Shown here: one piece after another, positions 2,620 to 52,264 of the stretch
Layout: each line of letters starts with the position of its first letter
Numbering within the stretch: the stretch's first letter is position 1
Source: an uncultured delta proteobacterium
Lineage (GTDB): Bacteria > Desulfobacterota > DSM-4660 > Desulfatiglandales > HGW-15
Assembly (NCBI GenBank): GCA_963702565.1
Contig: CAVPDE010000011.1
Span: 40,918 to 104,917, forward strand
Direction of reading: 5' to 3'
DNA: 64,000 nt
Position numbers and translations under genes: made by a program
The notes under the pieces: model-generated
The model's database searches: none
What the model saw: only the letters and a program-made list of their open reading frames with translations
Told to the model about the DNA's origin: nothing

Positions 2620-3654
2620 TTACCGTCTTTCTATCCCTCTTAGAAGCTCCAGATCGTCTAAGGCTTTTCCCGCCCCAACAGCCACAGCAGTCATTGGGTC
2701 TTCTGCGACATTTACGGGAAGGTTTATGACCGACCTCAGGAAAGAACTCATGTTCTTGAGCAAAGCCCCACCGCCAGCCAGCATGATCCCTTTATCCAAA
2801 AGGTCAGCTGCGAGTTCAGGGGGTGTTCGTTCTAGGATTGTCAACACAGCTCCAGAAATAGCATTGAGTTGCTCTTCCATCGCTTCCCTAACCTCGCCAG
2901 AATCTATCGTTAAAGCCTTGGGGACACCACTGGCTAGATCCCTTCCTTTTACTTCAACCCTTTCCAAGCTACCATCGGGCTGTGCGTTACCAATGGACAT
3001 TTTTATAGCTTCTGCTGTGCCTAACCCTATCATTAGGCGGTATTTCCTTTTGATGTATTCCAGGATGGATTCATCCATTTTGTCCCCGGCAACCCGTAGA
3101 GAAATGCTGTCAACAATGCCGCCAAGTGAGAGGACAGCGACTTCGCTAGTGCCACCACCGATATCCACAATCATGCTGCCTCTGGCTTCAGATATTGGGA
3201 GCCCTGCTCCTATCGCAGCAGCCATCGGCTCCTCGATAAAGTGCACTTCTCTAGCTCCTGCCAACCCGGCTGATTCCAGAACCGCTCTCTTCTCCACTTG
3301 AGTGATACCGCTAGGCACCCCAATGATTGTTCTTGGTCTCACAAACCTGCGTCCGGCATGTGCCTTCCTGATAAAATAGCCGAGCATCGCTTCTGCGACT
3401 TCAAAGTCAGCTATCACTCCATCCATCATTGGACGGATCGCAGTGATATTTTCAGGCGTTCTCCCTAGCATCAATTTGGCTTCTTTGCCCACTGCAAGGA
3501 CTTTCTTGCCATTTCCGTTTCCATTTTTCATAGCCACAACAGACGGTTCGTTCAGTACAATCCCTTTCCCCTTCATGTAAACAAGGGTGTTGGCCGTACC
3601 TAAATCAATCGCCAAGTCATGGGAGAAGATCCCTAAGACAGATCGCAAAACCAT
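2620..3654 (-). CDS. mreB: Rod-shape-determining actin homolog MreB
   Basis: 344 aa. Motifs: DLAIDLGTANTLVY, NEPSVVA, IVDIGGGTSEVAV and LAGGGALL. No mreC/mreD follows it. Confidence 0.95.
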   Translation of the reverse strand: MVLRSVLGIFSHDLAIDLGTANTLVYMKGKGIVLNEPSVVAMKNGNGNGKKVLAVGKEAKLMLGRTPENITAIRPMMDGVIADFEVAEAMLGYFIRKAHAGRRFVRPRTIIGVPSGITQVEKRAVLESAGLAGAREVHFIEEPMAAAIGAGLPISEARGSMIVDIGGGTSEVAVLSLGGIVDSISLRVAGDKMDESILEYIKRKYRLMIGLGTAEAIKMSIGNAQPDGSLERVEVKGRDLASGVPKALTIDSGEVREAMEEQLNAISGAVLTILERTPPELAADLLDKGIMLAGGGALLKNMSSFLRSVINLPVNVAEDPMTAVAVGAGKALDDLELLRGIERR

Positions 3655-5249: not shown

Positions 5250-5325
5250 TGGCAGTCCCAAGGGGAATCGAACCCCTGTCTTCGCCGTGAGAGGGCGATA
5301 TCCTAGACCGCTAGACGATGGGACC
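5250..5325 (-). tRNA. tRNA-Glu (anticodon CTC), CCA encoded
   Basis: The reverse complement reads GGTCCCATCGTCTAGCGGTCTAGGATATCGCCCTCTCACGGCGAAGACAGGGGTTCGATTCCCCTTGGGACTGCCA. The cloverleaf folds, with anticodon stem TCGCC/GGCGA, loop CTCTCAC and T-loop GGTTCGATTCC. Confidence 0.9.
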
Positions 5326-5329
5326 GTTT

Positions 5330-5403
5330 TGGCTGGGGGAGAAGGATTCGAACCCTCGTAAACGGGGCCAGAACCCGTTGTCCTGCCGCTGAACGATCCC
5401 CCA
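5330..5403 (-). tRNA. tRNA-Gln (anticodon CTG), CCA encoded
   Basis: The reverse complement reads TGGGGGATCGTTCAGCGGCAGGACAACGGGTTCTGGCCCCGTTTACGAGGGTTCGAATCCTTCTCCCCCAGCCA. Acceptor TGGGGGA/TCCCCCA, anticodon stem ACGGG/CCCGT, loop TTCTGGC. Confidence 0.9.
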
Positions 5404-10213: not shown

Positions 10214-11188
10214 TCAAGATTGACCGACCACTTTCCAGCACCGCACCCTGTGGTCATCCCCTACGGGATAGAACTTGATTTCTTCAATCCTGCAGCGATT
10301 TTCGACCAGAGGACATCTTCCCTGGAACTTGCAACCGGGCGGGGGATTGAAGGGGCTCGGCACATCCCCTGCAAGCTCTACAACCTCCAGAGAGCTTTCC
10401 TTTCCAGGAGCGGGCACAGCCGAGAGGAGCGCGAGGGTGTAAGGGTGAAGCGGTCGGTCGAACAATTCTTCAGTGGGTGCATACTCCATGATGTGACCGA
10501 GATACATGACGGCGACCCTGTCACTGATGTAGCTCACGACATGGAGGTCGTGGGAGATGAAAAGGTAACTGAGCCCAAGACGGCTCTGGAGTTCCTTGAG
10601 CAGGTTGATGATTTGGGCTTGGATGGAAACGTCCAGGGCTGAGACCGGTTCGTCGCAAATGATGAGTGAAGGCTCTACGCTGAGCGCCCTCGCAATGCCA
10701 ATCCTCTGCCTCTGACCGCCGCTGAACTCATGGGGATAACGATCCGCGGCAGAAGGAGCCATACCCACCATGTTTAGAAGGTTTTCGACCCGCATCCTTC
10801 GTTCAGCGCGATTCCCGACCCTTATCGTTCTCCGCCCCTCCTCGATCGACTGGCCGACTGTCATCCTGGGATTCAGGGAGCCGAAGGGGTCCTGGAAGAT
10901 GATCTGCATCTCTTTTCTGAGAGGCAACACTTCTTTTTGAGAGAGAGGGGCAATGTCGCGGCCTTTGTAAAAGATAGTCCCTTGATCGGGCTCCAGGAGC
11001 CTCAGGATAAGTCTGCCGATCGTCGATTTCCCGCACCCGCTTTCTCCGACCAGACCGAGGGTCTTGCCCTGATCGATGGCGAAATCAACGCCGTCCACGG
11101 CTTTGACCCAGCCGATGACCTTTTGCAGAAAACCTCGGCGAACGGGGAAATATTTTCGGAGACCTCCGACTTTGAGCATGATGGTCAT
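10214..11188 (-). CDS. Oligopeptide/dipeptide ABC transporter ATP-binding protein (OppF/DppF-type)
   Basis: GESGCGKST, FSGGQRQR, and the C-terminal oligopeptide-transporter extension (HPYT...C..RC). Confidence 0.9.
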   Translation of the reverse strand: MTIMLKVGGLRKYFPVRRGFLQKVIGWVKAVDGVDFAIDQGKTLGLVGESGCGKSTIGRLILRLLEPDQGTIFYKGRDIAPLSQKEVLPLRKEMQIIFQDPFGSLNPRMTVGQSIEEGRRTIRVGNRAERRMRVENLLNMVGMAPSAADRYPHEFSGGQRQRIGIARALSVEPSLIICDEPVSALDVSIQAQIINLLKELQSRLGLSYLFISHDLHVVSYISDRVAVMYLGHIMEYAPTEELFDRPLHPYTLALLSAVPAPGKESSLEVVELAGDVPSPFNPPPGCKFQGRCPLVENRCRIEEIKFYPVGDDHRVRCWKVVGQS

Positions 11189-11345
11189 TAGAAAGTGCCT
11201 AAAGTGAGCTAAAGTGTCTAAAGTTGAAACCCTAAAACCGTAAACACGAAAGCGCGAAAGTAGGAAAGCACGAAAGAAGAGGGGAGTTCTATTGAAAACA
11301 GGTCATTCCTTTTCGTGTTTTCGACCTTTCGTGTCTTTGTGGTTG
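11189..11345. repeat. Composite spacer element: CTAAAGTG-unit array (11194-11224) plus an NNNGAAAG / CTTTCGTG inverted-array hairpin (11245-11342)
   Basis: AGTGCCTAAAGTGAGCTAAAGTGTCTAAAGTT, then CACGAAAG CGCGAAAG TAGGAAAG CACGAAAG, a ~25-nt centre, then CTTTTCGTG TTTTCGAC CTTTCGTG TCTTTGTG. The right arm overlaps the last 13 codons and the stop of the upstream ATPase gene. Confidence 0.85.
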
Positions 11346-12322
11346 TCCCTTCTCGCATAAAGGACGGGACAGCGGCTCAAGTGGCCGTCGCCATAATCGC
11401 AAAGGTCCGGAAACTCGATGCGACATGTTTCTCTCGCGTATGCGCACCGGGGATGAAAAGGACACCCTGGGGGCCTGAAAGCCGCATCCGGCACAGTTCC
11501 CGGAATGCTATGCAGAGTCCCGCCCCTCTTGGAGCGATGAGGAAGGGAAGCGAGGAGTCCCATGGTATAGGGATGACGAGCGTCTCCGAAAATCGTTGCT
11601 GTTGCCCCCTGCTCCGCGATTAATCCCGCATACATGACGTAAATTCGGTCGGCAATGTTGGACACCACGTTCAGATCATGGGTGATGTAGAGCAGCGACA
11701 TGCCGCGCTTTTTTTGAAGTCTTGCGAAGAGATTGAGAATCTGCCGCTGAATGGTTACGTCGAGAGCTGTTGTCGGTTCATCGGCGATGACGAGATCCGG
11801 ATTGCATGCCAGGGCCATGGCGATCATGACTCTTTGTCGCTGGCCACCGCTCAATTGATGCGGGTAGTCGTTGATCCTCTCCTCAGGAGAAGGGATGCCC
11901 ACATCGCGCAAAAGCTGTAAACACCTCTCCTGAAGCTCCGCTTTTCCCATGTGCTCATGCACGAGAATCGCCTCTTTGATCTGATCACCAACCGTGAAGA
12001 CCGGATTGAGGGAAGTCATAGGTTCCTGGAAAACCATGGCAATGCGGCTTCCCCGGATCTTCTGCATTTCCTCTTCCCCGAGTTCTAACAGGTTTCTGCC
12101 ATGAAAGAGGATCTTGCCGCCGGCGATTTCGCCGGGAGGCCGGGGAATGAGGCCGAGAATCGTGAGGGCTGAGACGGTCTTGCCGCAACCCGACTCACCG
12201 ACGAGGCATACCGTCTCTCCCTTGCGGATGTCATAGCTCACTCCGTCCAGGGCGTGAGCCAAGGTCTCATCGCCCCGGAAGTGGACCTTCAGATCCTGAA
12301 CGGATAATAAGAGGTCTTTCAT
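11303..12322 (-). CDS. Oligopeptide/dipeptide ABC transporter ATP-binding protein (OppD/DppD-type)
   Basis: [17 protein letters not shown] and HPYT. The basic C-terminal tail [13 protein letters not shown] is encoded by the repeat arm. Confidence 0.9.
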
Positions 12323-12323
12323 T

Positions 12324-12364
12324 AGTGCCTAAAGTGTCTAAAGTGAGCTAAAGTGTCTAAAGTT
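12324..12364. repeat. CTAAAGTG-unit array (4 units), left inverted repeat of the 4HB cassette
   Basis: AGTGCCTAAAGTG TCTAAAGTG AGCTAAAGTG TCTAAAGTT. It abuts the ATG of the OppD-type gene. Confidence 0.85.
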
Positions 12365-12387
12365 ATAAAAACAAGAACCAGAAGAGC

Positions 12388-12741
12388 CTATCCAGCTTTC
12401 CCAATGGAAGTGAAAATTGCTAAGAGCTCGCTGCACTCATCGTGGTCAGCCTTCAGTTCCCCCCAAGGGATCCAACCTGTCTCTTTGATGACTTCCAGCC
12501 AATACTGTGTTTCGCTAGCCTCAGTCTCACATATGGAAATCCTATTCTTGAAATCAGCCCTGCTTCTTGCTCTATTTGCTTCACGGTAATTTGCCCCGAT
12601 TGATGTACCGGACCTGGTCATTTGGTTCTTGACGACTCTACCCTCTGGTGTGTTGGGTAGACGTGTTGACAGCCGAATAATCCGGACGCCGAACAGAAGC
12701 GTTCGACGCTCCAATTCCTTTGCGAATTCCTTATTCTTCAT
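12388..12741 (-). CDS. Four-helix-bundle protein (23S rRNA intervening-sequence protein / S23p family, Avd-related)
   Basis: 117 aa. SGTSIGANYREANRARSRADF and ETQYWLE are characteristic of this family. It is inserted between the permease and ATPase genes of the peptide ABC operon. Confidence 0.8.
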   Translation of the reverse strand: MKNKEFAKELERRTLLFGVRIIRLSTRLPNTPEGRVVKNQMTRSGTSIGANYREANRARSRADFKNRISICETEASETQYWLEVIKETGWIPWGELKADHDECSELLAIFTSIGKAG

Positions 12742-12755
12742 GTTTTGACCTTCAA

Positions 12756-12829
12756 TTTTAGCTCACTTTAGCCTCCGGCCTGTAGGGCCTACGGCCCGGA
12801 GGGACACTTTAGTTCACTTTAGGCACTTC
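12756..12829. repeat. Reverse-oriented CACTTTAG units split by a GC-rich hairpin, right inverted repeat of the 4HB cassette
   Basis: TTTTAGCTCACTTTAG (12756-12771), the GC hairpin CCTCCGGCCTGTAGGGCCTACGGCCCGGAGG, then ACACTTTAGTTCACTTTAGGCACTT (12804-12828). Confidence 0.85.
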
Positions 12830-13996
12830 TCAGTATCTTTCCCTCAGCTTCGGATTCAGAATGTCCCGCAAGCCTTCACCAAAGAGGTTGAAGGACAGGA
12901 CGACGATGAGAATGGCAAACCCGGGCACAAAGGTCAGCCACGGCGCATCGAAGATGAACCTCTTTCCATCGGATAGAATGTTGCCCCACGTCGCGTGGGG
13001 CGGCGGAACTCCGAAACCGAGAAAACTCAATCCAGCCTCGGTCAAAATCGCTCCTGCAATGCCGATGGTGGCGGAAACGAGGACAGGCGCGATTGCATTG
13101 GGAATCATGTGGCGGAAGATAATCCGCAGATCATTGACGCCCAGGGCCCTCGCAGCAGTGACAAAGTCCTGTTCCCTCAGGGAGAGAAATTCAGCCCGGA
13201 CAAAACGAGCTGTCCCTTCCCAGCTGGTGAGGCCAATGACGATCATGATGTTGTAGATGCTCGGTGGAAGCAGCGCGACCACGGTGAGGATCAGGAAGAA
13301 ACTGGGGAAGCAGAGCATGATGTCCACAAATCGCATGATCAGGGTGTCCACGGAAAAGGTTCCCGCAAAAAGAAAGCGGATCCACGGGTACCGGTGGAAA
13401 GTCCTATTTCTTGATAGGGCCACAAGGGCTAATGCAACAAAACACAGGATCACTCCGACAGGCAGATTTCCTGCGGCCAGGAATCCGCCTCCAATGAGGA
13501 GGAAGAAAGAGGCGAGCACGTGGTATACCCTGACAGGCCTTTCACCGTAATACCCTGAGAGGCCACCCATGAGGATTCCGACGAGTACAGAGATTCCTAC
13601 GGCAACGAAACCGACAGTCAAAGAAACCCAAGCCCCCTGGAGCATCCTTGCGAACACATCGCGACCCAGTTCATCGGTGCCAAAGAGATAAATTCCCAAC
13701 GCAGGAATTTCCTCCGGCCGCAGAACCGCTGCGATCGGGTTTGAAAGGGGAGGCCTCAACTTCTCAGGAAGGCGCACGAGCGATGGATCGATGGCAGGTT
13801 TTGTGCCCGATGTCAGCCACACCCCTGCGAGAGCGATGAGAAAGAAAAGAACAAAGATCAAGAATCCAGCCAAAGCGAGCTTGTTCTTCTTCAGCAGCCG
13901 CCAAGCTTCTTCCCAGCGCGAACGCCGAGGCATAAGAGGAGCTTCAGGGACAGAAGTTGTTTGAGGCGTGTTTTCGATCATGACGGTGAGCACCAA
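12830..13996 (-). CDS. Peptide ABC transporter permease (OppC/DppC-type)
   Basis: Binding-protein-dependent transport inner-membrane motif (EAARALG-like: TAARALGVNDLRIIFRHMIPN). The start is uncertain: TTG 13996 or ATG 13981. Confidence 0.9.
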   Translation of the reverse strand: MVLTVMIENTPQTTSVPEAPLMPRRSRWEEAWRLLKKNKLALAGFLIFVLFFLIALAGVWLTSGTKPAIDPSLVRLPEKLRPPLSNPIAAVLRPEEIPALGIYLFGTDELGRDVFARMLQGAWVSLTVGFVAVGISVLVGILMGGLSGYYGERPVRVYHVLASFFLLIGGGFLAAGNLPVGVILCFVALALVALSRNRTFHRYPWIRFLFAGTFSVDTLIMRFVDIMLCFPSFFLILTVVALLPPSIYNIMIVIGLTSWEGTARFVRAEFLSLREQDFVTAARALGVNDLRIIFRHMIPNAIAPVLVSATIGIAGAILTEAGLSFLGFGVPPPHATWGNILSDGKRFIFDAPWLTFVPGFAILIVVLSFNLFGEGLRDILNPKLRERY

Positions 13997-14011
13997 ACAT
14001 CAAGATGCAAC

Positions 14012-14135
14012 CATGAAAGCGCGAAAAGCAGAAAGCACGAAAGAAGAAGAGGGTTCTGCTGACAAAAGGTCATTCTTTTTCGTGCTTTTATCCTTTCGTG
14101 TTTTCGTGGTTCTCTTCTTGGCATTTTAGGCATTT
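14012..14135. repeat. Second copy of the NNNGAAAG / CTTTCGTG inverted-array hairpin (14012-14109) plus a degenerate reverse CATTTTAGGCA unit
   Basis: CATGAAAG CGCGAAAAG CAGAAAG CACGAAAG ... CTTTTTCGTG CTTTTATC CTTTCGTG TTTTCGTG. It aligns over its full length with 11245-11342, roughly four-fifths identical by eye. Confidence 0.85.
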
Positions 14136-15095
14136 CTACAGTCTTATCCTCGGGTCAACGACGAGATACAGAACATCCGAGATGAAAGTCCCGATAAGTA
14201 CCAGCACTGCCGAGATGAAGTTTACGGTCAGGATCACAGGATAATCCCTTGCAAGAATCGCCTCATAAGCCATCCGCCCCAGTCCGGGCCAGGAGAAAAT
14301 GGATTCGATGATGACTGAGCCTCCGATCAACCCGGGCAGGACAAGACCAAACATGGTGACAAAGGGCAAAAGGGCATTGCGAAGAGCGTGCTTGTAATGA
14401 ACCTGCTCTGCAGGGAGGCCTTTTGCCTTGGCCGTTCTCACATAGTCCTGACCCTCCACCTCGAGCATCTGCCCGCGCACATAGCGGGTGAGCACGGCAA
14501 TGCCGCCTACAGCACCCAGAACGGACGGCAGGAGCAAATGCCAGATCCGGTCCATGACCATTCGAACCCAGGACGTATCCCCCAAGCCGAAGGTCTCCAT
14601 GCCTATGACGGGGACTTGGAAGCGATTCACTACAATAATGATGAGAATGTAAGCAAAAAAGAATCCGGGAATAGAAATGAGGAGGTAAGAAAGAAAAGTC
14701 GTAGACCGGTCGTAAATCCCTCCTCTGTGAATGGCCGCACGGATCCCGATGGGGAAGGAAAGAGTCCATGTGAGAATGGTCCCGACAATGAAGAGGGGAA
14801 GACTGTTCAGAAATCGTTCCCAGATCTTGGTCAGTACAGGCTGGTTGTCTTTCCAGGATACCGTTCTGCCTGTAACAAGATCTCTGTGGTAGTAGAGATA
14901 TTGGATGTGGAGGGGTTTGTCGAGGTGGAAGGCTTTGCGGAAACGTTCCACGATCTCAGGAGTGAAGCGGGGGTTGAGAGGGTCTACCTGGCTCGGTTTG
15001 CCGGGCGCGAGATACACAATGAGAAAAGAGACGATGGAAACGAAGAAGAGGGTGACGATCTTCTGGATGATGCTTCTGCCGATGAAAGAAAGCAT
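14136..15095 (-). CDS. Peptide ABC transporter permease (OppB/DppB-type)
   Basis: 319 aa, six TM segments, and the YVRTAKAKGL motif typical of OppB/DppB. Confidence 0.9.
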   Translation of the reverse strand: MLSFIGRSIIQKIVTLFFVSIVSFLIVYLAPGKPSQVDPLNPRFTPEIVERFRKAFHLDKPLHIQYLYYHRDLVTGRTVSWKDNQPVLTKIWERFLNSLPLFIVGTILTWTLSFPIGIRAAIHRGGIYDRSTTFLSYLLISIPGFFFAYILIIIVVNRFQVPVIGMETFGLGDTSWVRMVMDRIWHLLLPSVLGAVGGIAVLTRYVRGQMLEVEGQDYVRTAKAKGLPAEQVHYKHALRNALLPFVTMFGLVLPGLIGGSVIIESIFSWPGLGRMAYEAILARDYPVILTVNFISAVLVLIGTFISDVLYLVVDPRIRL

Positions 15096-15100
15096 AACAA

Positions 15101-15231
15101 ATGCCTAAAGGGAGAAGAAGTGTCTAAAGTGAACTAAAGTGCCTAAAGTTAAAAACCGAGTGACGAGTCAAGCAAACAAGATACAACGGACAACGGACCA
15201 CTGACTGCGGACAACCGACAACGGACAACCT
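15101..15231. repeat. CTAAAGTG-unit array (15101-15150) plus seven direct heptamers ACAACGG-type (15183-15231)
   Basis: ATGCCTAAAGGGAGAAGAAGTGTCTAAAGTGAACTAAAGTGCCTAAAGTT, then ACAACGG ACAACGG ACCACTG ACTGCGG ACAACCG ACAACGG ACAACCT. Confidence 0.85.
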
Positions 15232-15265: not shown

Positions 15266-17416
15266 CTAGCCCTCCGGACTGAAGGAGGGCGCTTCCGGCA
15301 ATTTGATCCACCTGTTGAAATAAAAAGTGTAGTTGCCGGTCTTTGTGGGTGTGATCTTTCTGTATGCGACCTTGCCTTGGGAATCCACGTCCTTGATGAC
15401 GATGCGCTTGTCCAGGATGGCGCTCCACTTGCTTACGTAAAGAAACGTGTAGGGTTGCTCAAAGGCGATGATTTCATGAAGCCGATGGCAGAAAGAAGCC
15501 TGACGCTCATGGTCATATTCTTGTCTGATCCTGACAATGAGGTCATCGGCTTCCTGGTTCCTGAAGCCTACAAAATTGAGCTGATAGGGATTGGTCTGGC
15601 TGGAATGCCAGATCTGATAAAGATCCGGCTCAATCCCCATTTGCCAGCCCAAAATCAGCGCATCGAAATCGAACTTGTTGACTCGCTCCTTGATAAAGAC
15701 CGACCATTCAAACACAGCCGTCCGGACGTCGACTCCGATTTGTCTCCAGGCATCCTGAACAATGGTCATCACGGATTTGCGAATGTCATTCCCGCTGTTG
15801 GTAATCAGGGTGAACTGGAGCTTTTTCCCATTTTTCTCCAGCCAGCCTTCCCCATTCTTCCGCCAGCCCGCTTCTTCCAACAGCTTCAAGGCCCCTGCCG
15901 GGTCATAAGGTATGGGTTTCAGATTTTGATTGTAATAGTCCGTCTGCTTCACAAAAGGCCCTGTGATCTTTTCCCCTTGACCATAAAGCACGTACCGGAT
16001 GATCTTGTCCAAATCGACGGCCATGCTCAGGGCGGTTCGCACTCGACGGTCGTCAAAAGGGGCCCGGCGAAGATTATAGCCGATGTAAGAGTAGCCGAAA
16101 GAAAGCCCTGAGAAACTCTGGTACCGAGGATCATGCTCAAGGCGTTCCACCTGATGAGGTTGAACGCCGTATTCATCGGAGGTCCCGGCATAGAACTCCA
16201 TCTCCTGGGTCAGGAGATCGGGGATGACCCGAAATGCATAGCGCTCGTAGTTCGGAGCGCCATCCCAATACTCATTGAAGCGGTCCAGAGTGATGTACTG
16301 ATCGGATTTCCATTCGCGGAATACGAAAGGGCCGCAGCCAATGGGTCGGCGGTTGAACTGGCTATCTCTCATAGAAAACTTCGCGGGATCCGCACCCCGG
16401 CTCAGCGCCTCCTTTTTAAGCGCTTCGGCATTGAGGAGATGCTCGGGAAGGATATCCATGCCCCATGTTCCTATGGCAGGAGAGTAGAGGCGCTTGTAGA
16501 CAATGCGCACCGTCAGAGGATCAAAAACGTCGACCTGCTTGACCGGTTCGTAGTCCGGAACCCGGGGAGACAGGTTCCTGGGATCCATGATGGCTTCGTA
16601 GGTGAATTTCACGTCATCCGCTGTGAAGGGATGGCCGTCGTGAAACTTCACATTCGGTCTCAGACGGAAGAGGATGATAGGGTTGTGCTCAAGGGGGGGG
16701 AGGATTTCCTTTGCCCATGTTTTTAGGTTTTCCTGAGAAGGTTTAACCCTCTCATCCGGATCAGTACTGAGAAACATGTGTGAAGGAAGGGAACTGAAGT
16801 AGCTTTCTCCGAGAAGGCTGGAAAGGTTTACAAAAAGGTCTTGATCGACTTGATGCAGAACCAATTTAATCCTGCAAGGGGCCTGAACACGGATGGTAAT
16901 TTCACTGCCTTCGTCTCCCTCCTTGCCCTTTACAACTCGTTTGGTCTGGAACTCTTGGGGCGGAACAAAGGAAATCTCCTTGATGTTTTCAACTGAGGTT
17001 CGGAGTTTTGCGTTGCTCTGGATACCGCCTGACTTGGCTTGACGGAGCAACCCGATGACCTCATCAGGGCTTGCCTTCCCAAGGCTGGGAATCTCGGCCG
17101 TCTCATTACAGTAAAAGTATGCCTCCTCATAGATCTCCCAAGAGGTTGCAAGACGGCCTCTGAAACGAAGGTCTTGGTCTCGATCAATGAGACGGTCAAA
17201 GACAAGGTTTTCTATGGCGCTGCTGGCACTGTCCGATGAGAGAATCGGGTTCAGGATCGCGGCATCACCGATGGAAGCGGTGATGTATTCCTTGAGACGA
17301 TCCGGGTTCCCCCGGGTTTGGTCTTCGTAGGTAGGCACCCAGAAATAAGACTGGAGCAGAAGAAGGATGAGCAGAAGAGGAGCTAGGATCAAGATTGTAC
17401 GGACGGAGAACCGCAT
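15266..17416 (-). CDS. Peptide ABC transporter substrate-binding protein (family 5, OppA/DppA-like, unusually long at 716 aa)
   Basis: N-terminal signal/anchor LILAPLLLILLLL. The SBP_bac_5 pattern runs throughout (FHDGHPFTADDVKFTY, ITLDRFNEYW). Confidence 0.85.
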   Translation of the reverse strand: MRFSVRTILILAPLLLILLLLQSYFWVPTYEDQTRGNPDRLKEYITASIGDAAILNPILSSDSASSAIENLVFDRLIDRDQDLRFRGRLATSWEIYEEAYFYCNETAEIPSLGKASPDEVIGLLRQAKSGGIQSNAKLRTSVENIKEISFVPPQEFQTKRVVKGKEGDEGSEITIRVQAPCRIKLVLHQVDQDLFVNLSSLLGESYFSSLPSHMFLSTDPDERVKPSQENLKTWAKEILPPLEHNPIILFRLRPNVKFHDGHPFTADDVKFTYEAIMDPRNLSPRVPDYEPVKQVDVFDPLTVRIVYKRLYSPAIGTWGMDILPEHLLNAEALKKEALSRGADPAKFSMRDSQFNRRPIGCGPFVFREWKSDQYITLDRFNEYWDGAPNYERYAFRVIPDLLTQEMEFYAGTSDEYGVQPHQVERLEHDPRYQSFSGLSFGYSYIGYNLRRAPFDDRRVRTALSMAVDLDKIIRYVLYGQGEKITGPFVKQTDYYNQNLKPIPYDPAGALKLLEEAGWRKNGEGWLEKNGKKLQFTLITNSGNDIRKSVMTIVQDAWRQIGVDVRTAVFEWSVFIKERVNKFDFDALILGWQMGIEPDLYQIWHSSQTNPYQLNFVGFRNQEADDLIVRIRQEYDHERQASFCHRLHEIIAFEQPYTFLYVSKWSAILDKRIVIKDVDSQGKVAYRKITPTKTGNYTFYFNRWIKLPEAPSFSPEG

Positions 17417-17420
17417 AAGA

Positions 17421-17680
17421 AGTGCCTAAAGGGAGAAGAAATGTCTAAAGTGCCTAAAATAGAAAACCAAAACCACAACCACGAAAACACGAAACTATGA
17501 AAACACGAAAAAAAGAAATGCCTAAAGTGAGAAAACCAGTGACAAGTGACAAGTAACAAGTGACAAAACGAGCGAAAAATAAGAACAACTAAAAAAGGAC
17601 TACTTGTCACTCGTTACTTGTGACTTAAAGATCAACGGACAACTGACCACTGATAACGGTGAACCGTGAACGATGAGCAG
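17421..17680. repeat. 260-bp composite element upstream of the SBP gene: CTAAAGTG units, a CACGAAAA half-array, a GTGACAA/TTGTCAC hairpin and seven ANAACNG heptamers
   Basis: Modules: 17421-17460 units; 17477-17515 CACGAAAA x3; 17538-17572 AGTGACAAGTGACAAGTAACAAGTGACAA facing 17600-17626 CTACTTGTCACTCGTTACTTGTGACT (about 20 of 22 complementary); 17632-17680 TCAACGG ACAACTG ACCACTG ATAACGG TGAACCG TGAACGA TGAGCAG. Confidence 0.85.
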
Positions 17681-17757: not shown

Positions 17758-18720
17758 ATGTTTGAAGTTCTTGAGACAGCCTGGAATGTGGCCGCAAAGA
17801 GCCGCCATGTCCGGATCAACCATGAGGCGCTGGAGAAATTCAGTCAGGAATTGGCGGAGGGCGGTCTTCCCGGACCGAACTGGGATGCGGAGCATCACTT
17901 TAAGGGAAGCGATGAAGAGACGGTCGCCTATCTCCTTGCGGTGGACACCGTCAATTTCTGTTTCTGGCCTCCTCCTGGGCAGAAGAAATGGGAAATCTTG
18001 TATAAAGGGAAACCCTATTCGGGATACTACGGACTGGCTGTCTCGTTCAAGAAAGCGCTTGAGTCAGGGATTCCTCTCGGCGACTCCTCTTTCCTGGCTG
18101 CTCTAACCTTAAAGCAACTCGATGACATTTTCTCAGGAAAAGGGGTTTTGCAGCTTCTGGACGAACGCCTGGCAAACCTGCGGGAGCTGGGCAGGGTGCT
18201 CCTCAGCGAATACAGGGGGCAGGCTTGCGAATTGGTGGCAGCCGCCGGGGGTTCGGCAATCAGGCTGGTGCAGATGCTTGGCAGGGATTTCCCCTCTTTC
18301 CGCGACCAGGCGACCTACGAAGGCGAGAGCGTGTTCTTTTATAAAAGAGCCCAGTTATTTGCCGCTGACCTGCACGGAACCCTTGGCGGCAAAGGGCTGG
18401 GGAGTTTCACCGACATGAAAGAACTCACGGCCTTTGCAGACTACAAGCTGCCTCAGGTGCTTCGCCACGTTGGGGTGTTCGAATACGCTCCTGTCCTTAT
18501 GGAGAAGGTGGACCGCATGATATACCTCGAGCCGGGGAGCGAGGAAGAGGTCGAGGTCCGGGCCAACACGATCTGGGCCGTGGAGCTCCTTCGCCGGGAG
18601 ATGAATCGTCTCGGGAAAGAGGTTCATGCGAGCGAGATCGATTGGCTTCTGTGGAATCTGGGGCAAGACGACCGATTCAGAGCAAAGCCGTACCATCGGA
18701 CAGTGACGATATTCTACTGA
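17758..18720 (+). CDS. Queuosine-salvage family protein (DUF2419 / Qng1-like)
   Basis: DTVNFCFWP, FFYKRAQLFAADLHG and LTAFADYKLPQVLR match the DUF2419 pattern as I remember it. Confidence 0.6.
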   Translation: MFEVLETAWNVAAKSRHVRINHEALEKFSQELAEGGLPGPNWDAEHHFKGSDEETVAYLLAVDTVNFCFWPPPGQKKWEILYKGKPYSGYYGLAVSFKKALESGIPLGDSSFLAALTLKQLDDIFSGKGVLQLLDERLANLRELGRVLLSEYRGQACELVAAAGGSAIRLVQMLGRDFPSFRDQATYEGESVFFYKRAQLFAADLHGTLGGKGLGSFTDMKELTAFADYKLPQVLRHVGVFEYAPVLMEKVDRMIYLEPGSEEEVEVRANTIWAVELLRREMNRLGKEVHASEIDWLLWNLGQDDRFRAKPYHRTVTIFY

Positions 18721-18722
18721 GC

Positions 18723-18948
18723 GCCTAAAGGGAGAAGAAGTGTCTAAAGTGAACTACGCGCAGCGCAGGCGCTTGCGCCGCGTGAAGTGCCCAAAGTTGG
18801 AAGAAAGGTAAGAACAACCACGAAAACACGAAAAGAGGAAAGCACGAAAAAAGAAGAGAGGTGGCACGGGCAAGCTGTGCTTGCCCGTGGTATAGAGTAG
18901 TGGACGGGAGGAAGAAAACACGGATAAGCAAGGCTTGTCCGTGCCACC
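18723..18948. repeat. Composite element in the convergent gap: CTAAAGTG units, a GC hairpin, a CACGAAAA half-array and two related 11-bp hairpins
   Basis: Modules: 18723-18755 units; 18756-18785 GC hairpin; 18826-18870 CACGAAAA units; CACGGGCAAGC-TGT-GCTTGCCCGTG (18873-18897); CACGGATAAGC-AAG-GCTTGTCCGTG (18920-18943). Confidence 0.8.
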
Positions 18949-30671: not shown

Positions 30672-30677
30672 TGAAGA

Positions 30678-30882
30678 AGTGCCTAAAGTGTACTAAAGTG
30701 TCTAAAATGCCTAAAGTTGAAAAAGAGAATACAGAATCAAAAGAATGGAGTGTTGGAGTAGTGGAGTGATGGAGTATTGGGTTTAAACCAGTACTCCAGT
30801 GCTCCAACGCTCCATTACTCCATGCTATTAACAGCAACGGACAACTGACTATTGATCACGGACTCCAGGCAACAAGCAACCT
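30678..30882. repeat. Composite spacer element: CTAAAGTG units, a TGGAGTNN / NNACTCCA inverted arrays hairpin and seven heptamers
   Basis: Modules: 30678-30718 units; 30745-30780 ATGGAGTG TTGGAGTA GTGGAGTG ATGGAGTA TTGG; centre GTTTAAA; 30788-30823 CCAGTACT CCAGTGCT CCAACGCT CCATTACT CCAT; 30834-30882 GCAACGG ACAACTG ACTATTG ATCACGG ACTCCAG GCAACAA GCAACCT. The element ends one nucleotide before the pdxJ stop codon. Confidence 0.85.
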
Positions 30883-51018: not shown

Positions 51019-51104
51019 TTGGAGTAATGGAGTACTGGAGTAGTGGAGTGTTGGGAATCGCAGTTCTGTTCACTCCATTACTCCATTACTCCATCATTCC
51101 ATCC
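51019..51104. repeat. TGGAGTNN / NNACTCCA-type inverted arrays (8-nt period)
   Basis: TTGGAGTA ATGGAGTA CTGGAGTA GTGGAGTG TTGGG, a centre, then CACT CCATTACT CCATTACT CCATCATT CCATCC. Confidence 0.85.
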
Positions 51105-52154: not shown

Positions 52155-52264
52155 TAGGAGTATTGAATGCTGGAGTAATGGAGTACTGGAGCGCTGGAGT
52201 AATGGTGGAATAAAGAAAAAGAGGATACCCAGTACTCCAAGACTCCATCACACCATCACTCCAT
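52155..52264. repeat. TGGAGTNN / NNACTCCA-type inverted arrays (third copy)
   Basis: TAGGAGTA TTGAATG CTGGAGTA ATGGAGTA CTGGAGCG CTGGAGTA ATGGTGGA, a centre, then CCCAGTACT CCAAGACT CCATCACA CCATCACT CCAT. Confidence 0.85.

Follow-up and report, generated by a model that had tools for sequence, protein, structure and literature searches.

A putative IVS-type cassette encoding a four-helix-bundle protein between inverted short-repeat arrays at a junction of a peptide transporter operon

We describe a 505-nt element in a 64,000-nt stretch of DNA from an uncultured delta proteobacterium (GenBank assembly GCA_963702565.1, contig CAVPDE010000011.1), which is called the window throughout. The element, at 12324-12828 on the minus strand, carries a gene for a 117-aa four-helix-bundle (4HB) protein between inverted arrays of the octamer CTAAAGTG, and it separates a permease gene from an ATPase gene. 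We conclude that it is probably one copy of a small invasive cassette of the intervening sequence (IVS) type, in which a PF05635 gene is bracketed by inverted CTAAAGTG arrays. The open reading frame (ORF) that 23S rRNA intervening sequences carry has puzzled workers since 1993, and the 4HB family has many thousands of members that are annotated only as 'four helix bundle protein'.

The host is a minus-strand peptide/oligopeptide ATP-binding cassette (ABC) transporter operon with the gene order substrate-binding protein (SBP), permease, permease, 4HB gene, ATPase, ATPase. The insertion and the genes around it are laid out as follows.

12324-12828, minus strand: putative IVS-type cassette, 505 nt, inverted CTAAAGTG arrays around the 117-aa 4HB gene
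12388-12741, minus strand: 4HB gene, 117 aa, of the PF05635/TIGR02436 '23S rRNA intervening sequence protein' family
12757-12829, minus strand: 5' arm of the cassette (coding strand), CTAAAGTG units directly after the permease TGA at 12830-12832
12772-12802: GC-rich palindrome of 31 nt inside the 5' arm (CCTCCGG...CCGGAGG)
12324-12364, minus strand: 3' arm of the cassette (coding strand), CACTTTAG units ending 1 nt before the ATPase 1 ATG
12830-13996, minus strand: OppC-type permease 2, the host gene upstream of the insertion
11303-12322, minus strand: Opp-type ATPase 1, the host gene downstream of the insertion
10214-11188, minus strand: ATPase 2
14136-15095, minus strand: permease 1
15266-17416, minus strand: SBP gene

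Read along the coding strand, the permease TGA is followed by (CTAAAGTG)n, here called the F arm, by a short purine-rich leader and by the 4HB ORF; a short tail then leads into (CACTTTAG)n, the R arm, and a single base separates this arm from the ATPase 1 ATG. The units have a period of 9-10. The left flank (12329-12364) holds three exact copies of CTAAAGTG and one with a single mismatch, and the right flank holds three exact reverse units (at 12764, 12805 and 12815) and one degenerate unit. Exact CTAAAGTG occurs 15 times in the window against 0.8 expected, and 0 of 100 shuffles had as many. Within 21 nt, the F arm (12808-12829, minus strand) supplies TAA, TGA and TAA, which are stops in all three frames, so that an upstream ORF entering the element ends at once; equivalent arms at other loci likewise supply stop codons. 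The left array is the usual leader type of the downstream ATPase gene, and its orientation is shared by the arrays before four other start codons of the window. By location the cassette is not a 23S rRNA IVS, as it sits between two protein-coding genes. Rfam finds no RNA family in or near the cassette and no rRNA in the window, where its two only matches are adjacent tRNA genes at 5253-5403 (minus strand).

The arms contain two nested blocks of perfect complementarity, 12324-12336 with 12815-12827 (13 nt, 100%) and 12338-12352 with 12757-12771 (15 nt, 100%). In an alternative register, 12332-12357 pairs with 12803-12828 over 26 nt at 92% (2 mismatches). The flanks share no perfect complement longer than 15 nt; shuffled flanks gave a mean of 6.1 nt and a maximum of 12, and 0 of 2000 shuffles reached 13. 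The minimum-free-energy fold of the sense strand (-173.5 kcal/mol, z = -3.7) closes both nested stems around the whole ORF, and the flanking stem is also present in the centroid fold. Cognate arms match each other better than non-cognate arms, with a longest perfect run of 13.5 versus 10.2 nt. We used this statistic because all arms share a consensus, which leaves the RNA duplex energy of cognate arms with only a modest excess over that of non-cognate arms.

A first-pass annotation of this stretch, made from the sequence alone, had placed the 117-aa 4HB gene between the permease and ATPase genes, counted four units on the left and four reverse units on the right, matched a 13-bp outer and a 15-bp inner stem by hand, and proposed a long RNA stem closing around the whole ORF. 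The family matches and operon order, the unit counts, the two perfect stems and the predicted fold agree with it on each of these points. It had also noted a GC-rich hairpin between the right-hand blocks, which is indeed present at 12772-12802 but is private to the window. This palindrome (12772-12786 with 12788-12802) is an insertion; the orthologous F arms of three related loci (L001, L082 and L083) are uninterrupted there, and no second copy was found in the window or the fetched loci. Checked on both strands, it is not terminator-like.

The same arrangement is found around related genes elsewhere. A protein scan with one genome per species gave 545 relatives, and the best 80 of these 545 loci, with 63-86% identity, were analysed; they carry the phylum labels Desulfobacterota, Planctomycetota, Bacteroidota, Calditrichota and Acidobacteriota. 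Our census comprised 84 4HB genes with usable flanks, scored over 120 nt per side. On average, 2.85 forward units lie upstream and 2.74 reverse units downstream, compared to a background of 0.08, which is an enrichment of about 35-fold for units in the correct orientation; units in the wrong orientation number 0.14 and 0.43. At least two units stand on both sides, in the same arrangement, in 51 of the 84 genes. Adjacent array pairs are ordered F...R in 94 cases (54 with a 4HB gene, and 40 without in 1.07 Mb of loci) and R...F in 3. Consecutive units are 9 nt (427 cases) or 10 nt (291 cases) apart, and runs of 2-4 predominate. In 74 of 79 cases the 4HB gene points the same way as the gene upstream of it, and in 67 of 77 it shares the orientation of the gene downstream. 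No neighbour gene recurs among 579 clustered neighbouring ORFs, and the host operons, which include transporters, kinases and defence systems, are unrelated. Judged by sequence, the cassette recurs under five phylum labels at dozens of gene junctions that are unrelated to each other, and it has the orientation of the genes on either side. That 4HB genes might generally be flanked by inverted arrays had been suggested in the first-pass annotation, and the census bears it out.

These counts leave little room for coincidence, that is, for slippage-born tandem repeats that fill all intergenic space and flank a small gene by chance. The window and its relatives do hold many different intergenic tandem-repeat families, as such an account would have it, but it is contradicted by the orientation-specific enrichment and by the 94 to 3 order of array pairs. 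It is also contradicted by deletion derivatives that keep the leader and tail sequences of the cassette, and by a repeat unit that goes with the protein clade, whether copies are compared inside one locus or between phyla. We give coincidence next to no credence.

The orthologous operons provide an insertion history. A metagenome scan with ATPase 1 gave 80 orthologous operons that were compared at their junctions. At the permease 2/ATPase 1 junction, the site is empty in about 25 lineages, where the stop codon of the permease gene overlaps with the start codon of the ATPase gene (TGATG or similar), and the cassette is intact only in the window and in L001, L082, L083 and L133. L086 holds a frameshifted cassette. 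L081 keeps both arms, the leader (with ATG changed to ATA), the first codons and the tail, having lost the rest of the ORF, and in L109 the two arms enclose what is left of the ORF, its last ~25 codons. Gene-less F...R elements stand at this junction in L091, L097 and L098, solo arrays in L092, L100 and L138, and arrays of unrelated units in other lineages. At the ATPase 1/ATPase 2 junction, L001, L082, L083 and L084 have a second cassette, which is truncated in L081. The window has at this place a solo array of CACTTTAG units (11192-11225, minus strand), directly upstream of the ATPase 2 start codon, which is the relic 3' (R) arm of the second cassette.

Because some 25 empty TGATG junctions are found alongside filled, frameshifted and deleted states, the sequence comparison identifies the cassette at the permease 2/ATPase 1 junction as an insertion into a former stop/start overlap. 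Through frameshifts and internal deletions, cassettes degenerate to palindromic or solo arrays with no gene, such as those of the window, and 17 of 43 gene-less F...R interiors contain recognisable cassette sequence. Empty sites in relatives and a link between gene-less arrays and 4HB cassettes had both been raised in the first-pass annotation. The overlapping stop and start codons of the ~25 lineages provide the former; the deleted cassettes of L081 and L109, the 17 interiors and the second-cassette arm at 11192-11225 provide the latter. A separate observation concerns L086, where the ATPase 1/ATPase 2 junction (~2628-3016) holds a truncated 4HB gene of another, more canonical subfamily (MAMRFEDLQVWKRS...) with AAAGG/CCTTT-type arrays. 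As this junction holds a CTAAAGTG cassette elsewhere, the L086 gene points to repeated independent invasion.

By profile and fold, the protein belongs to the family. The 117-aa ORF matches PF05635 (E 1.3e-18, 67.6 bits; cut-off 33.8), with no further Pfam domain, as well as TIGR02436 (E 1.4e-23, 83.2 bits; cut-off 24), and its sequence matches PDB entry 2rld with E 2.8e-20. Its AlphaFold2 monomer model has four helices (pLDDT 95.9). In Foldseek, the model aligns with 2rld (BT_0352) at TM 0.82-0.89, with 2gsc (Xcc0516) at TM 0.70-0.83, and with Avd in ribonucleoprotein structures of diversity-generating retroelements (DGRs; 4dwl, 8ub7) at TM ~0.65 and ~10% identity. The 2rld and 2gsc depositions contain five chains each, and 2gsc is described as an assembly of five four-helix bundles (Lin et al. 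2006, as cited in PMC3936711). The family motif is quoted as GxxRxxxSxxxNxxE (PMC3936711). Residues S47, N51 and E54 are invariant across 30 relatives; residue 43 is R in the window protein as against K in the consensus, and an invariant Q40 stands where the motif begins with G. The dN/dS of the 4HB gene is about 0.08 (0.07-0.11), a sign of strong purifying selection. The protein is probably an Avd-like nucleic-acid-binding pentamer. It is the sole ORF between the inverted repeats, which enclose no HUH/Y1 (IS200/IS605-like) transposase.

The likeness to Avd brings up a retro-element relative, in which the 4HB protein would be an Avd-like cofactor of a reverse transcriptase encoded elsewhere, the repeats would come from reiterative reverse transcription and the excised RNA would be an intermediate. 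Besides the fold, this proposal can draw on DGR surveys that assign Avd to PF05635, the name they give to the family (PMC10053308), and on arms that are arrays of 7-10-nt units. However, no recurrent reverse-transcriptase-like neighbour lies within 5 kb of the cassettes at the 80 loci, and there is none among the window's 36 annotated ORFs. When the window is compared with itself, intergenic repeat elements alone emerge, with no pair of template and variable repeats (TR/VR), and the sequence identity to Avd is low. We consider this explanation very improbable. The relation to Avd proposed in the first-pass annotation stands as regards the fold. Since neither a nearby reverse transcriptase nor a TR/VR pair was found, the connection to Avd and DGRs is one of fold-level homology only.

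The repeat unit varies with the protein. CTAAAGTG is the commonest arm 8-mer in all five phylum groups, and dS is saturated for most pairs of these 4HB genes. Distant paralogues share the inverted-array architecture but lie between arrays of other units: CTAAACTC (L035), GATTGCGGA (L067), TCCAAAAT (L070) and AAGTTGGC (L006). At L035, L067 and L070, the paralogue shares its locus with a CTAAAGTG cassette yet uses its other unit. The repeat unit thus tracks the protein subfamily and not the host genome. Conservation of the octamer despite saturated synonymous sites, together with purifying selection on the gene, makes it likely that the protein recognises the repeats in a sequence-specific manner.

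More distant relatives (35-50% identity) are carried between co-oriented genes on plasmids of cultured organisms (L161-L168, from Planktothrix, Pseudanabaena, Nostoc, Gloeocapsa, Chlorohelix, Bernardetia and Treponema). Their sites lie in defence and other operons, such as drmD/MmeI, csx2/cas1 and DUF1156/HEPN helicase. Inverted repeat flanks, mostly heptamer arrays, were found in 6 of the 8 plasmid copies examined. In Nostoc flagelliforme, (AATTCAA)4 stands opposite (TTTTGAA)4 as a perfect 30-nt inverted repeat; N. punctiforme PCC 73102 has, around NPUN_RS34315 on pNPUN01, (GGTCGGA)n opposite (TCCGACC)n in a 44-nt inverted repeat, and Planktothrix has (AATCGTA)n opposite (CGATTTA)n. These cyanobacterial flanks are arrays of the short tandemly repeated repetitive (STRR) type.

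These observations suggest how the cassette could operate. A promoter and terminator scan of the cassette gave no signal above chance, and the gene is co-oriented with its hosts, which makes read-through of the operon the simplest source of expression; the cassette would then be transcribed with no promoter or terminator of its own. In the transcript, the arms would pair, over 26 bp with 2 mismatches or as nested stems of 13 and 15 bp, to form a duplex enclosing the ORF. RNA duplexes of ~26 bp are substrates of RNase III. From a duplex of this length and from the anatomy of the Coxiella IVS (see below), cleavage by RNase III would be expected to excise the 4HB region as a monocistronic mRNA and to split the operon mRNA at the junction. 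The protein would recognise its own repeat arrays and be needed for persistence or spread of the element, as a REP-associated tyrosine transposase (RAYT) is for its REPINs, the doublets of repetitive extragenic palindromic (REP) sequences. We infer this role from three things: the conservation of the protein, its clade-specific units and its fold.

Several points weigh against this interpretation. The mismatches between arms show no excess of G·U pairs (36 sense-strand G·U versus 37 A·C, with 67 transversions), and the arms diverge as the two halves of an inverted repeat in DNA would. It may be that the stem merely results from this repeat and is not a selected RNA structure. For the same reason, we dropped the claim of a selected RNA stem and kept the physically expected duplex. 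Two-sided arrays of at least two units each are limited to the 51 of 84 copies given above, and two of the eight plasmid copies (L165 from Bernardetia and L162 from Pseudanabaena) have direct flanks. The phylum labels come from metagenome bins, in which binning errors are possible. Given the saturated dS, the 65-75% identity across phyla is no proof of recent horizontal transfer, which we do not claim as its cause. At the 80 loci, neither the cassettes nor their surroundings encode a nuclease, transposase or reverse transcriptase, and the window contains no gene for a transposase or reverse transcriptase. Comparison of filled with empty junctions reveals no recognisable target-site duplication, where the boundaries are blurred by the remodelled ATPase start codon, which prevents the exact insertion boundaries from being fixed. 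The homologous ORF of Coxiella is reported as probably not expressed (PMC4990558). As to vectors, viral contigs yielded no relatives, and thus no phage vector was identified.

The window contains further gene-less arrays in addition to the relic arm upstream of ATPase 2.

15105-15150, minus strand: solo array immediately before the start codon of permease 1
17426-17529, minus strand: solo array units in the leader of the SBP gene
18725-18751: solo array between the convergent genes for a queuosine-salvage protein and S-adenosylhomocysteine (AdoHcy) hydrolase
30677-30718, minus strand: solo array at the pdxJ/acpS junction, immediately before the start codon of acpS

The gene-less arrays of the window are R-type, and in most cases a gap of 6-10 nt separates the array from a start codon (that of ATPase 2, permease 1, SBP or acpS). 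The position is orientation-dependent: in reverse orientation, 29 of 105 gene-less arrays are followed by a start codon after 1-10 nt, and the count for the opposite orientation is 3 of 105. The five genes led directly by CACTTTAG-type arrays (...TTTAGGCAC(T)TNNNNATG), which start at 11188, 12322, 15095, 17416 and 30671 on the minus strand, all have no Shine-Dalgarno-like motif, and such a motif is present in about half of the other genes checked. Initiation from a short leader that would remain after processing is one possibility for these array-led genes. We also observed a variant unit, CCTAAAGGGAGAAGAAGTG, ahead of ordinary units at 15103-15136, 17421-17452 and 18720-18756, and the copies at 15103 and 18723 have 34 nt in common. 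Read on the plus strand, it has the look of a Shine-Dalgarno sequence followed by GTG/ATG, and on the operon strand it is anti-Shine-Dalgarno-like.

Could the arrays serve the host? They would then be signals for RNA processing or translation inside operons, with the 4HB protein as an RNA-binding regulator that tunes the downstream segments. Such a host-beneficial module is consistent with the placement of reverse arrays just before start codons, with the five array-led genes that have no Shine-Dalgarno motif, with the strong co-orientation of cassette and operon, and with purifying selection on the protein. It is harder to reconcile with a cassette that is patchy among close relatives, frequently decayed or deleted at one junction and inserted into unrelated host operons, from transporters and kinases to defence systems. 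Moreover, the ancestral junction works as a plain stop/start overlap. We regard a regulatory module as unlikely.

The operon contains a second type of gene-less element with a different unit.

11242-11347: gene-less palindromic element of 106 nt, unit CACGAAAG ... CTTTCGTG
14009-14114: CACGAAAG palindromic element, second copy, between permease 1 and permease 2

The two copies are 80% identical over 106 nt, including the non-repeat core between their arrays, so whole gene-less elements are also copied, in this case within one operon. Arrays related to CACGAAAG are present at 17480-17518 and 18819-18850. The forward arm of the first element encodes the last 14 codons of ATPase 1 (11303-11345, minus strand), a C-terminal tail that is absent from relatives whose match ends near residue 325; in L001, the ATPase 1 stop codon comes from the first CTAAAGTG unit instead. 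A third family forms (TGGAGTAA)n ... (ACTCCATT)n palindromes at 51020-51102, 52171-52264 and 30746-30826. These sites are gene junctions of an Fe-S/flavoprotein oxidoreductase operon and the pdxJ/acpS spacer, and no cognate protein gene for this family lies within the window.

The copied elements bear on a purely DNA-level explanation, in which a palindrome is moved in trans by a RAYT, by an IS200/IS605-type single-strand transposase or by recombination of one array with another. In that case the RNA stem would play no part, and the 4HB gene would either be carried along as a passenger or supply an accessory DNA-binding factor. Duplication of gene-less copies together with their non-repeat interiors, the presence of several unit families in one genome, the strict F-then-R arrangement and the divergence of the arms without an RNA signature are all in keeping with it. 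However, no such enzyme is encoded within 5 kb of the cassettes or in the window, and a unit that tracks the 4HB clade argues against a mere passenger. On these grounds we think movement in trans quite unlikely.

The favoured reading, an invasive IVS-type cassette, can be extended to a more general proposal, which we offer tentatively and with more doubt than belief. PF05635 4HB proteins might mark a vast, so far unrecognised class of mobile elements, palindromic and built of short tandem repeats, as its signature gene, with 23S rRNA IVSs and cyanobacterial STRR arrays as special cases or debris. Each clade would recognise its own 7-10-nt repeat, as required for copying or retaining the element at operon junctions. 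If true, this would be a transposase-less counterpart of the RAYT/REPIN relationship, and the reported 'associations' of PF05635 genes with cas and defence operons would be mere invasions of gene junctions. Such a gene has been seen inside cas operons, for example between cmr3 and cmr2 (PMC3936711), and by analogy this placement may reflect junction invasion by cassettes of the kind described here.

Our literature search, which had incomplete coverage and could have missed an earlier description, found no account of 4HB genes bracketed by inverted short-tandem-repeat arrays or linked to STRR-type repeats. The contexts it did find for the family are the IVS work, Avd in DGR surveys and the gene inside cas operons. 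What appears to be new is an IVS-type cassette at mRNA operon junctions, with array arms and gene-less derivatives. Such cassettes break up operons, alter start codons and C-termini and take the place of Shine-Dalgarno regions, and an invading cassette is easily mistaken for a functional partner of its host operon.

Among known systems, one close parallel is the IVS of 23S rRNA, as in Coxiella burnetii or Leptospira. The Coxiella IVS is 428 nt long, compared to 505 nt for the cassette, and its terminal inverted repeats pair up as a 28-bp stem (PMC4990558). Upstream of its S23p ORF are three tandem GACAGAT heptamers and a degenerate one, in strain-variable number, and RNase III makes its 5' cut at the first repeat (PMC4990558). 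The likeness is thus stronger than the first-pass annotation had it, as the Coxiella stem arm also contains tandem heptamers. In both systems an inverted-repeat stem of ~26-28 bp encloses an ORF of ~120 aa for a 4HB protein, tandem 7-8-nt repeats occupy the stem arm upstream of the ATG, and the element, as predicted for the cassette, has no promoter of its own but is part of a host RNA. The differences are that an IVS resides in helix 25 or 45 of 23S rRNA whereas the cassette lies between protein-coding genes, in an mRNA, and that the cassette arms are whole arrays of 3-5 units and the cassette has many gene-less derivatives. The cassette ORF is under strong purifying selection, in contrast to a Coxiella ORF that is reported as decaying, and RNase III processing is experimental in Coxiella and predicted for the cassette.

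The gene-less derivatives resemble miniature inverted-repeat transposable elements in that internal deletion leaves the terminal inverted repeats of a longer coding element, although the parent cassette has no transposase and no recognised target-site duplication. With Avd of DGRs the protein shares the four-helix-bundle fold and superfamily, its relatives 2rld and 2gsc having five chains each, but the cassette has no adjacent reverse transcriptase, template repeat or variable repeat, and identity is ~10%. Cyanobacterial STRRs are likewise intergenic tandem heptamer arrays, and such arrays flank the examined 4HB genes of cyanobacterial plasmids in inverted orientation, whereas the unit in the window is an octamer plus a 1-2-nt spacer. 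STRRs have been described as orphan repeats of unknown origin, and we are not aware that they were ever tied to a protein family. The ORF of 23S rRNA IVSs, the 4HB family and the STRR repeats would be brought together by one anatomy, in which a 4HB gene lies between inverted arrays of a short repeat particular to its clade, is inserted at an operon junction and decays to gene-less arrays.

In RAYT/REPIN systems, a protein gene sits between inverted copies of dispersed gene-less repeats, and the repeat type co-varies with the protein clade. The cassette is similar in that its gene is flanked by inverted repeats, its gene-less doublets are intergenic and its unit co-varies with the clade. It differs in encoding a 117-aa helical bundle with no HUH/Y1 catalytic domain, in having tandem 8-mer arrays as arms where REPs are single hairpins, and in that several cassettes can occupy one operon. 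By analogy, the cassette would work like an rRNA IVS and is organised like a RAYT with its REPINs, while being a member of neither group. Since the cassette recurs across several bacterial phyla, an element that was long familiar from 23S rRNA genes alone looks like a widespread invader of operon junctions.

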